A DNA stretch of 64,000 nt. Source: Eledone cirrhosa (lineage: Eukaryota). The translations under genes and the position numbers were made by a program. The stretch covers positions 90,458,001 through 90,522,000 of the forward strand of contig OZ024744.1 of NCBI GenBank assembly GCA_964016885.1, given 5' to 3'. This document shows, piece by piece, positions 2,766-60,675 of this stretch. The notes beneath the pieces were generated by a model. The model was not told the origin of the DNA, searched no databases, and saw only the letters and a list, made by a program, of their open reading frames with translations. Within the stretch, counting starts at the first letter, position 1. Every line of letters starts with the position of its first letter.

Positions 2766-3170
2766 AAAAAATAATGAATAAAACAATGAAACAGTTCCTT
2801 ATATTAAACAAAAAAAGTTCATTATTTAACGATCGTTTCTGGGATATATATGTGTTAGAATTGGCATGTATATTTAACAGATCTATGTACAAAATTATAC
2901 AAAATTATACAAACTATCAAAATTAAATATACATACCAACTCATATATATGCCGTCTTCAGAAATAAATTATTTCTGAAGACGGCATATATATGAGTTGG
3001 TATGTATATTTAATTTTGATAGTTTGTATAATTTTGTATAATTTTGTACATAGATCTGTTAAATATACATGCCAATTCTAACACATATATATCCCAGAAA
3101 CGATCGTTAAATAATGAACTTTTTTGTTTAATATAAGGAACTGTTTCATTGTTTTATTCATTATTTTTTT
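2766..3170. mobile_element. ~400-bp fold-back element with a hammerhead in each arm (head-to-head)
   Basis: 2766-2967 is the near-perfect reverse complement of 2969-3170, and (TA)n follows. Confidence 0.85.
2969..3114 (+). ncRNA. Type I hammerhead ribozyme with extended stem II (mirror copy on the minus strand at ~2822-2967)
   Basis: ttattt-CTGAAGA-[long stem II including gagttggtatgtatatttaa/ttaaatatacatgccaattc]-GAAA-cgatcg-TT-aaataa: 6-bp stem I, palindromic stem III ACGATCGT, GUU cleavage triplet. Confidence 0.8.
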
Positions 3171-3965
3171 TATATTTTACATATATATATATATATAAAT
3201 ATATACATATATATAAATATATATATATATATAAATATATACATATATATAAATATATACATATATATATATATATAAATATATACATAAATATATACAT
3301 AATATATATATAAATATATACTTATATATAGCTTTCACCGTATTTTTAACTAAAGGAATTTGAGCTTGATAACGGGGTTTAGAACCCTCAGATAAATGGA
3401 AAAAGATGAGTATTGACGTACGTCCCCAAGTATAACAATATTTGTTTCGACACCCGATTTAATATAAAAAACCTCGCAAAACTAAATATATATACATATA
3501 TATAAATATATATATATATAAATATATATACATATATATATATATATATATACATATATATATATAAATATATATACATATATATATATACATATATATA
3601 TATATATATATATATATATTGGTGTTAGGAAGGGCATCCAGCCGTAGAAAACCCGCCAAGTGGGAAAACTCCCGTCCAAACCCATGCAAGCGTGGAAGAT
3701 GGACGTTAAACGATGATGATGATGATATATATATATATATATTTATATATATAAATATATATATATATATACATATATATATAAATATATATATATATAA
3801 ATATATATACATATATATATATATAAATATATATACATATATATAAATATATATACATATATATAAATATATATACACATATATAAATATATATACATAT
3901 ATATAAATATATATACATATATAAATATATATACATATATATAAATATAAATATATATAAATATA

Positions 3966-4307
3966 TCATCATCTCATCATCTCATTTTACGTCCACTTTT
4001 CCCTGCTTGCAAGGGTGGGACGGGAACTGATTCTGGCTTGATTTCTACAGCTGGATGCCCTTCCTAACACCAACCTCATTTACAGTGAGTGCAGGGTGCT
4101 TTTTTGCCGTGGCACCTCCACGACCACTTTGCAGTGGAATGATAGGGACCCCAGTCCCTATCATCTCATTTCTACAGCTGAGTAAACTGGAGCAATGTGA
4201 AATAAAGTGTCTTGCTCAAGGAAACAACACATCACCCGGTCTGAGAATTGAACTCACAACCTTTCGATTGCAAGGCCAATGCTCTAACCACTAAGCCACG
4301 TGCCTCC
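3966..4307 (-). mobile_element. tRNA-derived SINE with a central CORE/V-like domain and an RTE-derived 3' tail
   Basis: Minus strand shows A box tggcttagtgg, B box gagttcaattc and ccttgagcaagacact, then a tail shared with the RTE LINEs (gtgttaggaagggcatcc...gacgtaaaa, GAT repeats). Confidence 0.75.
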
Positions 4308-5096
4308 ATATATATATAGATATATATAGATATATATAGATATATACATATATAGATATATATATATATATACATATATATATAGATATATATAGATATA
4401 TATATATATAAATATATATAGATATATATATATATATAAATATATATACATATATATATATATATATACATATATATATACATATATATATATATATATA
4501 TATATATATATAACGAAGGAAATGTGGTAAGGAACCAGATGGACCATAACACACCAAAGTACTCAATACTTAGGGTAGTAGAGTGGGTAATAGGAACGAG
4601 TGGGATCCCGATGGCTGAACTCAAGCCGTTTCGACGGCTAATTCTGGACAAAATTTAGTTCAGAATTAGCCGTCGATACGGCTTGAGCTGAGCCTTCGGG
4701 GTCCTACTGTAGTCTCCGCTTCTGTAGTTTACCATCTGATTAATTGGTGAAATATATTTCTTTAATGAAATATATACAGGGAAGATTAATCATATTATAA
4801 GGTATCTATTTTTGAAGTTCTGGTCAACTTTATTTAGTTACCTACAACACTAAATATATATACATATATATAAATATATATAAATATATATACATATATA
4901 TATATATATATAAATATATATACATATATATATATATATAAATATATATATATATAAATATATATAAATATATATACATATATATATATATAAATATATA
5001 TACATATATATATATATATATAAATATATATACATATATATATATATATATAAATATATATACATATATATATATATAAATATATATACATATATA

Positions 5097-5200
5097 TATT
5101 TATTAAAATAACAGATTAAAGTTTAAGCAAAGAATCGCTGCTTTCATTCCTTATCGAGCCCTCTTTGGATTTTAGTCTTCAATTTTATTATTATTACTAT
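5097..5200. mobile_element. Short copy, with internal inversion, of the family at 26.7-27.05 kb and 52.2-52.38 kb
   Basis: 5097-5145 is the reverse complement of gaaagcagcg...aataaat; 5147-5200 matches 27002-27055 in forward orientation. Confidence 0.75.
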
Positions 5201-5669
5201 ACATATATATATATATATATATGTATATATATATATAAATATTGATGTTAGGAAGGGCATCCATATATACATATATACACATATATATATATATACATAT
5301 ATATATACACATATATATATACATATAAATATACATACATATATATACATACATATATATATATATACATATATATACGTATATATATATATACAGAGAT
5401 GTATATGTATATATATATACACATATATATATACATATATATATATACATCTATATATATATACGTATATATATATGTATATACATATATATATATATAT
5501 ATACATATATATATATATACATCTATATATATATATGTATATCCATATATATATATACATATATATATACATATATATATATGTATATACATATATATAC
5601 ATATATATATATATACATATATATACATATATATATATATACATATACATATATATACATATATATATA

Positions 5670-58029: not shown

Positions 58030-58260
58030 TTCAAGCTTTGCCATTCTTCTACACCTAATTTTCTTAAGGATCACCTGATGACAGATCGTGACATTCTGTC
58101 AAAGGCCTTCTCTGGATCAACAGAAGCTAAATACAGAGGTTTACTCTTAGTTAAGAACTTCTCGTAGTTGTCTTACTAAAAAGAGGGCTTCTGTGGTACC
58201 TCTCCCTGACACAAAACCAAACAGGATCTCATCTAATTTGACTTTTTCCCAAATTAGTAA
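58030..58260 (-). mobile_element. Decayed RTE RT fragment
   Basis: Reverse strand reads GFVS..GTTEALF...LASVDPEKAFDRM. Confidence 0.7.
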
Positions 58261-58966
58261 GATTTTGTTGGTTAAGGTCCTTATATGTATGTAACATGTG
58301 GGGCAGTAAATAGACCAAGTCGGCAAAGCATGGTGTCAGACACTATACTTTGCAGCACAGAGTTATGGCCCTTTATGGTCTAAGTTTAAATCGTGCTGAG
58401 GTTAACTTTGCCTTTCATCCTTACAATAAATAAAGTACCAGTGATGCACTGGGGTAATTACTGGCCTTGTGCCAAAAGTAGAAACATATACACCAGAACT
58501 GAACACAAAAGAACCAAACCCTCACTGTCACTGCCTCCTTCTCTTCTGCTCTCCCCATCCTCCTCCGGGGAAATGCCTTCTCTATTCTGTCCTCCTGTTC
58601 TGCGGGACAGCCATTACACGGGTCCCTAATTAGTTGTACTAGAACTCTTACTGTTACTTTCATAATTTATTTCTGCCAGGATAAAAAATCATTCATGCTC
58701 TATGTCCGTCTAAAATTGCATCTTATTAACTATCCTCACCATTACTGAACACCCCATCCTACTCTCACCCACCTCACTTTATCCAGGATCACTCCCCAAC
58801 ATCCTGTATAAATCTTAACACACCAGTCATAACTCCTTAGTAGCTGTTCATATCATCACACTACCCACCACACTTCATTTTGTCAAACTTCACCACACTT
58901 GTCATACTCACATCAAACATTTTCTCACCTTTTCTGTCTACCATATAATCATGCCTGCCATACACC

Positions 58967-59582
58967 CAGAGGCATAACTAGGGAAAATAGCACCTATGGC
59001 AAGCATCCTGCCCAGCACTGTATTTTTACCTATGGGCCTATTCAGAAGGAAAACTAGGGAAAATAGCACCTATGGCAAGCATCCTGCCCAGCACTGTATT
59101 TTTACCTATGGGCCTATTCAGAGGGAAAACTATGGAAAATAGCACCTTTGGCAAGCATCCTGCCCAGCACTGTATTTTTACCTATGGGTCTATTCAGAAG
59201 GAAAACTAGGGAAAATAGCACCTATGGCAAGCATCCTGCCCAGCACTGTATTTTTACCTATGAGCCTATTCAGAAGGAAAACTAGGGAAAATAGCACCTA
59301 TGGCAAGCATCCTGCCCAGCACTGTATTTTTACCTATGGGCCTATGCAGAGGGAAAACTATGGAAAATAGCACCTTTGGCAAGCATCCTGCCCAGCACTG
59401 TATTTTTACCTATGGGCCTATTCAGAGGCATAACTATGGAAAATAGCACCTTTGGCAAGCATCCTGCCCAGCACTGTATTTTTACCTATGGGCCTATTCA
59501 GAGGGAAAACTAGGGAAATACACCTATGGCAAGCAGTAAAATTGTGTCCCTGCCCAGCAGTGTATTTTTACCAATGTGCCTA
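58967..59582. repeat. 76-bp minisatellite, ~8 copies
   Basis: ggaaaatagcacct.tggcaagcatcctgcccagcactgtatttttacctatggg at a 76-bp period (58981, 59057, 59133...). Confidence 0.92.
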
Positions 59583-60450
59583 ATAATTTATATAAATGGT
59601 TTAATGATCCTGCCACCAGAGTGTTTCTCACCCATGATAATCAGAGACAGATCATACATCTGAAGGAGTTTCTTTTTTCACTCACCAACGAGACTTATTT
59701 TACTTTAATACAACGTGCTCCTAGTCCATGTGATATCCCCTTCATGTGACACCTATGACATGTGCCATGCTTGCCTTATCCTAGTTACACCTCTGCATAC
59801 ACCCATAACGTATCTACCATCCTTCTTACCTGGCATATTCTTAAACATGATCCCTTTTGCCTAATGAAAGTTCCAGTACATTTCTGTAGCTGAAAACCTG
59901 AAAACCAAATAATGTATTTCCTTATTTTATCAATTCCCCCCCCCCCCAAAAAAAAAGTCTAACCACTTGTGGAAAACAGGTAAAAGAAACCAATATGCAC
60001 ACACAAACACAACTGACACACACACATACACACACACACACACGCAAACACACACACACATGCAAAAACAAATCCCATGTCATAGAATGAAACCTGAAAC
60101 GATGTGGTAGTGAGGGTCAGGCGAACTTCTTAACCAACCACACAAGCATGTCTGCACATGTGTGTATATATATATATATGTATATATATAATAATAATAA
60201 TTGTTTCTACTTTTGGCACAAGGCCATCAATTACCCAGTACATTACTGGTACTTCATTTTATCGACCCCGTAAGAATGAAAGGCAAAGTTAACCTCGGCG
60301 GAATTTGAACTCAGTCCGTAAATACTATTTATAGTTATGTATACACTATATACAACTATAAACAGGAAAGGTCAGTAATCCATTACTACCTTATTACCAG
60401 TAAGAAAAATAGCTCAATGTAAATACATGAGATGTTTTACAGAGCAGGAA

Positions 60451-60675
60451 TATAAATTACACAATAATCAAAGCTATATTCAAAACATTTTATTGCTGAC
60501 AATCGTTTCTTCCAAACTTTCGTTTGGAATCATCGGAGCACTAGCAAAGTTTAGACATATAATTAACCTCCTATTCAACTGAACAATCACATAGATTCCA
60601 AACGAAAGTTTGGAAGAAACGATTGTCAGCAATAAAAGGATTTGAACATAGCTTTGATTATTGTGTAATTTATAT
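60451..60675. mobile_element. Fold-back element (~80-bp arms, ~60-bp spacer) built from a hammerhead
   Basis: 60451-60531 is the near-perfect reverse complement of 60594-60674. Confidence 0.8.
60494..60540 (-). ncRNA. Type I hammerhead with a U4C core variant
   Basis: tgct-CCGATGA-ttccaaac.gaaa.gtttggaa-GAAA-cgattg-TC-agca: perfect 8-bp stem II with GAAA loop, GUC cleavage. Confidence 0.75.

Follow-up and report, generated by a model that had tools for sequence, protein, structure and literature searches.

Insertions of endonuclease-positive (EN+) Penelope-like elements (PLEs) are described as head-to-head inverted copies with a one-sided tail, partial tandems, a hammerhead ribozyme in the pseudo-long terminal repeat (pLTR) and (TA)n targets (PMC3846280, PMC8557442). 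The minimal hammerheads of metazoan PLEs belong to type I, have a palindromic or minimal stem III, are of the dimer type and form many families per genome; dual motifs on opposite strands, 100-700 bp apart, have been ascribed to truncated PLEs (PMC4209133). In vitro, the Anolis Poseidon protein PAc nicks both strands of AT-rich DNA and extends them, begins reverse transcription at two internal sites, one on either side of the tail, and mainly uses uncut RNA (PMC11167929); the origin of the inverted copies and the tails is stated to be open (PMC8557442, PMC11167929). Animal non-LTR (long terminal repeat) retrozymes are non-coding tandem units with one type I hammerhead each, and their connection with PLEs has been described (PMC7229834; bioRxiv 10.64898/2026.07.22.740005). 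The elements analyzed here, seven hammerhead-bearing repeat families (A to G), come from a 64,000-nucleotide stretch of the 3.0-Gb Eledone cirrhosa genome (the window; assembly GCA_964016885.1, contig OZ024744.1, positions 90,458,001 to 90,522,000 of the forward strand), 23% of which is microsatellite. They share the features listed above for EN+ PLEs and their hammerheads, and their layout, that is, an inverted truncated copy, a one-sided tail and paired hammerheads on opposite strands, is already published (PMC4209133, PMC3846280, PMC8557442). The finding reported here concerns the outer ends: nearly every fold-back joins one arm that ends at a fixed site P to one arm that ends at a second fixed site T, with a layout like that of the two PAc start sites, and this applies also to a non-coding retrozyme array.

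In every family, two outer ends are fixed, namely P, where an arm passes into (TA)n, and T, where a tail stops; this tail measures 26-36 nt in B, ~38 in C, ~68 in D, ~110-120 in G, ~135-145 in A and ~165 in E. The tails of A, D, E and G (~68-165 nt) are thus longer than the 30-40 nt described for EN+ PLEs. The copies sampled consisted of 40 scored candidates each for A, D, E, F and G and 39 for B; ends in C were typed by direct matching of the tail sequence. Among 92 outward pairs, 10 have an unreadable or off-site end, and 80 of the 82 typed at both ends consist of one P and one T arm (A 7/7, B 26/26, C 21/21, D 13/15, E 9/9, G 4/4), although in D and G the search queries contained tail sequence, so that one T arm is forced in their pairs. 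The two exceptions are T+T pairs in D, whereas neither P+P nor convergent (inward) pairs occur in these sets. These 80 pairs show the adjacent inverted, 5'-truncated copy with a tail at one end that is typical of EN+ PLEs; the one-P-one-T rule, counted here over 82 pairs, is an addition to the published descriptions of EN+ PLEs. The first-pass annotation of the window had proposed arms that point outward and each consist of a hammerhead followed by an AT-rich tail. The orientation holds for all window cores, and the sampled pairs are exclusively divergent; the description of the arms overlooked that one of the two continues into the 26-165-nt tail.

All six fold-back elements of the window (A, B, C, D, E and G) obey the one-P-one-T rule. 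Masked self-blastn of the window located inverted repeats at 2766-3169 (99% identity), 12196-12605 (91% including the spacer), 35658-35841 (97%), 45851-46217 (93%) and 60458-60667 (80% including a 65-nt spacer), as well as a 310-bp array that reverses direction at ~9627, with a minus arm at 8272-9629 and a plus arm up to 11623. Together with family F and a separate PLE, the window contains:

2621..3178, both strands: family A fold-back; minus arm 2766-2967, tail 2621-2765 (135-145 nt, end T)
2969-3170, plus strand: family A plus arm, terminating at P in (TA)n
2975..3108, plus strand: family A hammerhead; core CUGAAGA, palindromic stem III, stem II of 115 nt, cleavage predicted after 3108
2961-2828, minus strand: mirror hammerhead in the opposite arm of the 2.8-kb fold-back
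8272..11623, both strands: family B retrozyme array; 310-bp non-coding unit, two outward arms, 10 intact hammerhead motifs
Family B minus arm, minus strand: 4.4 units, terminating at T, unit position 14
Family B plus arm, plus strand: 6.4 units, terminating at P, unit position 284
12196..12649, both strands: family C fold-back; minus arm reaching P in TA at 12196
12415 onward, plus strand: family C plus arm, starting at the 5' pile-up of the family; ~38-nt tail at 12612-12649
12344 (minus) and 12459 (plus): family C hammerhead cores, found by the strict descriptor in both arms
35658..35916, both strands: family D fold-back; minus arm reaching P in TA, stem I clipped
Core at 35756, plus strand: family D plus arm with an intact hammerhead; ~68-nt tail 35849-35916
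45682..46222, both strands: family E fold-back; minus arm with a ~165-nt tail 45682-45843, plus arm reaching P in TA
46002 (minus) and 46067 (plus): family E hammerhead cores, read by eye
46230..48044, minus strand: separate 5'-truncated PLE; end of the reverse transcriptase (RT) and GIY-YIG open reading frame (ORF) 47076-48044
52404..52530, minus strand: family F copy; minimal hammerhead, core 52524, two substitutions relative to the family, ending in TA
52795..52895, plus strand: older relative of family F with 72-76% similarity and its core at 52806; it does not mirror the 52.5-kb copy
60340..60675, both strands: family G fold-back; ~110-120-nt tail 60340-60450 on the minus arm, whose core (60536) is CCGAUGA
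Within 60340..60675, plus strand: family G plus arm, clipped inside the core, reaching P in TA

Comparison of the seven family arms with each other yielded no cross-family blastn match at E<=0.01. The claim that six fold-backs and the array lack mutual similarity thus holds for five fold-backs and the array. At 52.4 kb, the outward hammerheads (52524 minus, 52806 plus) align at just 71% over ~100 nt and the left one is ~95% similar to the high-copy family F, so this locus is, as judged by alignment, a pair of relatives and not one fold-back; copies of family F are usually single. The separate PLE at 46230-48044, which meets the family E element tail to tail within one TA run, has a 158-bp duplication in its 3' untranslated region (UTR) and a degenerate hammerhead near 46428 with a CCGTTGA core.

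The two arms of a pair tend to share sequence variants. In B, the variants 123A/131T/141T agree in all pairs but one; in C, arms show 1.08 differences at 10 polymorphic sites versus 4.62 in permutations (p 0.0002), and the corresponding permutation test for D gives p 0.001. The joints between arms have 0-8-nt overlaps or fills of up to 12 nt and differ by several nucleotides from locus to locus; they are not inherited. Shared variants, short overlaps and the symmetric centres in A and C are also what would be seen if one complementary DNA (cDNA) folded back and was copied into a second arm or if antisense RNA primed itself, as proposed in PMC3846280. This origin is nevertheless quite improbable. 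In the monomeric families, the long arm is often the P arm and the short arm bears a tail that the P arm lacks (E loci L048, L055, L056, L059 and L061; G loci L221+L328 and L214+L329; C locus L167), and therefore neither arm was copied from the other; in addition, the pile-ups of arm starts at a spacing typical of a sense-strand promoter, considered below, favour a sense template. In B, the longer arm is P in 11 and T in 15 of 26 pairs. The arms might alternatively derive from two RNAs of one source, each bound by one subunit of a dimeric enzyme and primed at its own site. Pairs in E and some in C and D differ at polymorphic sites, and both arms can extend hundreds of nucleotides past the promoter, as this scheme allows; by itself, however, it gives no account of the absence of P+P and the rarity of T+T pairs, and the agreement of young B arms in the subfamily variant speaks against it. 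We regard two RNAs as an unlikely general source of the pairs, and priming at two sites of a single RNA as the somewhat favoured one.

The families are abundant. Candidate counts at first look were 1046 for A, 322 for B, 1695 for D, 1301 for E, 1806 for F and 3190 for G, and a 39-mer of family C has 5,047 exact copies versus 0 for the control; all these numbers are lower bounds. In longer copies, A, C, E and G are the 3' ends (pLTRs) of protein-coding PLEs, with a single ORF, encoding a PLE-type RT and, C-terminally, a GIY-YIG EN, located upstream of the repeat end on the same strand. In A, this ORF ends 2.7-3.6 kb upstream of the arm; an alignment of loci L083 and L072 spans 5.4 kb from the RT to the arm at 95%, the same linkage is present in L074 and L077, and the intervening ~3-kb 3' UTR, a length that differs from described EN+ PLEs, is rich in microsatellite. 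The ORF of E ends ~1.2 kb upstream in long copies (L071, L052, L066, L061), and the EN of G lies 0.9-1.2 kb upstream at three loci (L222, L221+L328, L214+L329). In family C (L225, L226), two pLTRs enclose a unit of 4.2 kb and an inverted copy precedes them; the ORF of C matches Pfam RVT_1 and GIY-YIG above the cut-off. The RT and EN motifs of A, E and G were found by inspection and tblastn; pieces of A and E have no Pfam match. Partial tandems that form pLTRs are seen in C (the 4.2-kb spacing in L225 and L226) and in G, where the tail is followed by the RT in L206, L208 and L216. The linkage to PLE ORFs that had been anticipated is thus present in these four families, whereas no contiguous ORF was found in the 28 D and 19 F loci sampled or in their extensions. 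Two leads were discarded: D-like motifs that follow Hydra ORFs in L331 and L332 are separate insertions, and a search with the far-upstream part of the G locus L207 recovered a different repeat.

A, E and G have the CxCX5C linker and the (TA)n target of the Hydra clade, and A additionally has CxxC and CxH around the conserved E and N and, alone among the three, the DKT motif; these features, together with the hammerheads, are those listed for this clade in PMC8557442. Family C has the linker CNDNRCGTC (of the CX2-5CxxC type) and a CCHH EN (C-P-N-C ... H ... H). By these motifs rather than by tree placement, A, E and G appear to be Hydra-type PLEs and C a Neptune-type PLE. The A and E elements are longer than the '<3 kb' given for the Hydra clade in PMC8557442.

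Short, high-copy, near-perfect palindromes at TA with near-constant centres in A and C are reminiscent of miniature inverted-repeat transposable elements (MITEs) that are moved by a DNA transposase and contain hammerheads as chance or captured motifs. This explanation can practically be dismissed. The outer ends are unequal (P versus T), the junctions vary from locus to locus by several nucleotides, single arms and long truncated elements are frequent among the copies, and the counts of motifs are far above controls; for A, C, E and G it is refuted, as no equal terminal inverted repeats with fixed ends were found and long copies encode RT and GIY-YIG domains. The earlier preference for a PLE origin over MITEs is borne out by the four families joined to such ORFs, by inner ends that either vary or sit at the RNA start, by the asymmetric outer ends, by the exclusively divergent orientation and by the enrichment of TA flanks. 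The elements are almost certainly products of PLEs.

Family B is non-coding. Its 310-nt tandem unit, within the 150-400 nt usual for non-LTR retrozymes, carries one hammerhead, and near-identical arrays are dispersed in the genome, as in animal retrozymes; similarly to the axolotl HHR_Amex2, B has a U-U mismatch at the base of stem II. A dimer of the unit is predicted to fold as a double hammerhead, as expected for tandem RNA. Contigs from four sequencing runs of unknown kind contain just the tandem joint and were left out of the analysis. Unlike the animal retrozymes described so far, 29 of 34 B loci are two-armed, with two fixed, outward-facing outer ends; the available text of PMC7229834 has 0 occurrences of 'inverted', and that of bioRxiv 10.64898/2026.07.22.740005 has one, in a reference title, while local amplification of retrozymes by unequal crossover is discussed in the latter. 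The 58 inner ends of B are spread round the unit (Rayleigh p ~0.2), and clustering of fold points at the ribozyme cut or at the priming site of the other arm was accordingly rejected. The array, a non-coding retrozyme, was inserted in the same arrangement as the PLE ends. Two outward arms are likewise found in a second tandem hammerhead family, which has an ACTAGT stem III and ~420-500-bp units (e.g., G000:C1 5541142-5543703 and 9968461-9972122).

In C, 53 of 73 arms start at -33 to -45 relative to the core, with the mode at -44, and TATAAAA is located 31 nt upstream of the modal start base. For A, the starts of 18 of 38 arms lie 5 to 8 nt before the core, at TCA(+1)TTA with AGTTG at +28 to +32, words that we take to match the initiator (Inr) and downstream promoter element (DPE) consensus; later-starting A arms are absent from this sample because the query began 6 nt before the core. 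Starts in D are spread over 0-58 nt, and those in E and G are spread widely. From their sequence context, a promoter in the pLTR probably starts the RNA 44 nt (C) and 7 nt (A) before the core; Drosophila Penelope has an internal Inr/DPE promoter in its pLTR (PMC2377424). A fold-back centre just 5' of the core, which had been considered a general feature, is sharp in the families of the 2.8- and 12.2-kb elements and loose in that of the 35.7-kb element, and does not hold for the array or for the 45.9- and 60.5-kb elements; it likely reflects the transcription start in A and C and ascertainment in the other families.

Taken as a whole, these observations are very plausibly explained by PLE and retrozyme ends inserted through priming of both target strands on one uncleaved RNA. 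Under this scheme, the RNA would start at the pLTR promoter, at position -7 (A) or -44 (C) relative to the core, and the enzyme would act as a dimer, with one subunit for each priming site and each target strand, so that both cut strands of the (TA)n target prime reverse transcription, one at P and the other at T. Copies primed in the first pLTR would extend to the RNA start, yielding short near-perfect palindromes centred there, whereas those primed in the last pLTR would stop at varied points and might include the ORF. The two copies would then be joined at their 5' ends, the cDNA ends meeting by overlaps of 0-8 nt or short fills. The B array could arise by the same route from a circular or multimeric 310-nt RNA, in which case the fold points would be spread round the unit. 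The hammerheads would be dimer-type motifs that remain uncut in the template; moreover, the second motif of a head-to-head pair is antisense to the first, so a read-through RNA would form a hairpin in which the ribozyme is predicted to be masked.

Several observations weigh against this scheme. No enzyme that mobilises B was identified, and both D and F, which reach at most ~350 and ~300 nt upstream, respectively, in the sampled loci, lack an ORF there. Arms in E share variants weakly (2.11 versus 2.79, p 0.056), and 3-6 polymorphic sites disagree in several pairs of C and D; this is compatible with the use of two RNAs in some events. In vitro, PAc showed no difference in start site between the strands, and the inverted copies are not explained by that work (PMC11167929); the genomic pairs allot one site to each arm. 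The 5' pile-ups could also represent a short subfamily or an RT stop, and target site duplications are unreadable within (TA)n. Finally, A>G changes, sought as a sign of an edited RNA template, show no strand bias in A, B or C, and this idea was abandoned.

Hammerheads were searched with a strict and a loose type I descriptor, and those at 45.9, 52.5 and 60.5 kb were identified by visual inspection. The strict descriptor matches 13 times in the window (10 array units, both 12.4-kb arms and the right 35.7-kb arm) versus 0 in each of 20 block shuffles; the loose one matches both arms at 2.8 and 12.4 kb, the 10 array units and the right 35.7-kb arm. These motifs have the CUGANGA and GAAA boxes, the U-H site and a three-way junction with paired stems, as indicated by descriptors and folding. 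The five palindromic stem III words reported at first reading are correct; stem III is non-palindromic at 35.7 kb (ACCTTGGGT) and 60.5 kb (ACGATTGT). Several arms deviate from the full motif: each 45.9-kb arm has one stem-I mismatch, the left 35.7-kb arm has lost the 5' strand of stem I, and at 60.5 kb the left arm has the core CCGATGA and the right arm retains just the last GA of the core. The CCGAUGA (U4C) form is the majority core in G (17/24 in the L205-L224 set), and a PLE at L294 carries a CCGAAGA core. Stems II of up to 115 nt, mismatches at the stem II base (U-U, C-A, A-G) and the CCGAUGA majority in G distinguish these motifs from those described in PMC4209133, where related minimal hammerheads cleave weakly and only as dimers. 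Rfam HH9 aligned to one array unit scores 14.9 bits, far below the cut-off of 52, and an Rfam scan of the whole window is dominated by microRNA matches to TA repeats.

Beyond the window, 59 evenly spaced 10-kb stretches (590 kb in total) contain 37 strict hammerhead matches versus 0, 0, 0, 0 and 1 in shuffles. This density of ~63 per Mb extrapolates to an estimated ~1.9 x 10^5 motifs genome-wide (Poisson range 1.3-2.6 x 10^5), compared with the thousands given in PMC4209133, and for a single sub-type the exact matches number 51,047 versus 7 for the control, in line with the very large ribozyme population that the first-pass annotation envisaged. Of the 37 strict matches, 31 were probed for partners, the other 6 being low-complexity or at a sample edge. 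The predicted enrichment of TA flanks and the orientation bias are both apparent: (TA)n lies within 300 nt downstream of 29/31 hammerheads versus 45/300 random positions, an outward partner accompanies 13/31 hammerheads (9/27 insertions) versus 20/300, and an inward partner 2/31 versus 26/300.

Short fold-backs occur at ~80 per Mb; among the 48 sampled, 30 touch TA. Only 7 contain a strict outward motif, still more than the 0 in shuffles, so hammerheads are enriched in fold-backs relative to shuffled sequence, whereas the notion of a class defined by the hammerhead fails. The same families yield fold-backs cut 3' of the hammerhead (L103 for C, with one of the sampled fold-backs being a C copy of this kind; for D, arms whose start lies at query 57-74), and hence the hammerhead is a passenger and not a defining part of the fold-backs. 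These ribozyme-less copies, together with the 41 of 48 sampled fold-backs without the strict outward motif and the junctions that are not inherited, make it very improbable that the mobile unit is the whole hairpin, as it would be in a self-standing class of non-autonomous ribozyme RNAs, even though short copies dominate C and D, some short C copies have variant sets of their own and B is truly non-coding.

Other repeats of the window include a fold-back at 4520-4708 that belongs to an abundant family (112 blast rows in the sampled loci), has a one-sided extension and lacks a hammerhead core; a ribozyme-free end of PLE type is a possible identity. Another fold-back without a hammerhead, at 25814-26046, adjoins TA and the assembly gap 26053-26251 and has no copy in the sampled loci. 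RTE-like long interspersed nuclear element (LINE) copies are located at 12678-15888, 43577-45667 and 60695-62561. The LINE pieces 13570-14582 and 14844-15888 lie on either side of a TA/ATC run with their tails towards each other, a polarity opposite to that of the PLE fold-backs. Two copies of a 492-bp LINE fragment, 99% alike, are located within a 9-kb TA tract and at its end (19809-20300 and 25267-25758), possibly as a local duplication or an assembly repeat. There are also a 50-bp minisatellite at 55558-56978, derived from an RTE 3' region, and a 76-bp one at 58967-59535.

The one-P-one-T count, the palindromes bounded by start sites and the two-armed retrozyme arrays were not found in the literature outside subscription papers and supplements; families related to these could already be present in the supplementary lists of PMC8557442 and PMC4209133, and the available text of PMC13282606 does not mention ribozymes. 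The one-P-one-T rule, the shared variants and the promoter-spaced centres offer a direct test for the existing in vitro system and extend to a non-coding retrozyme. In genome annotation, such hairpins will be misclassified by the tens of thousands as MITEs or microRNA precursors (two of them received miRNA-like scores in the Rfam scan), and with ~10^5 hammerhead motifs and ~80 fold-backs per Mb they are likely a source of double-stranded RNA. The chances appear about even that the second half of the Penelope cycle, missing so far, is preserved in the fold-backs, in which case a dimer would read one uncleaved RNA twice, from two fixed sites and with one copy for each nicked strand of the target, that short palindromes would be full copies reaching from the priming site to the transcription start, and that, given the same rule in Hydra-type and Neptune-type elements and in a protein-free retrozyme, retrozyme arrays would be single PLE-made insertions rather than satellites produced by unequal crossover.

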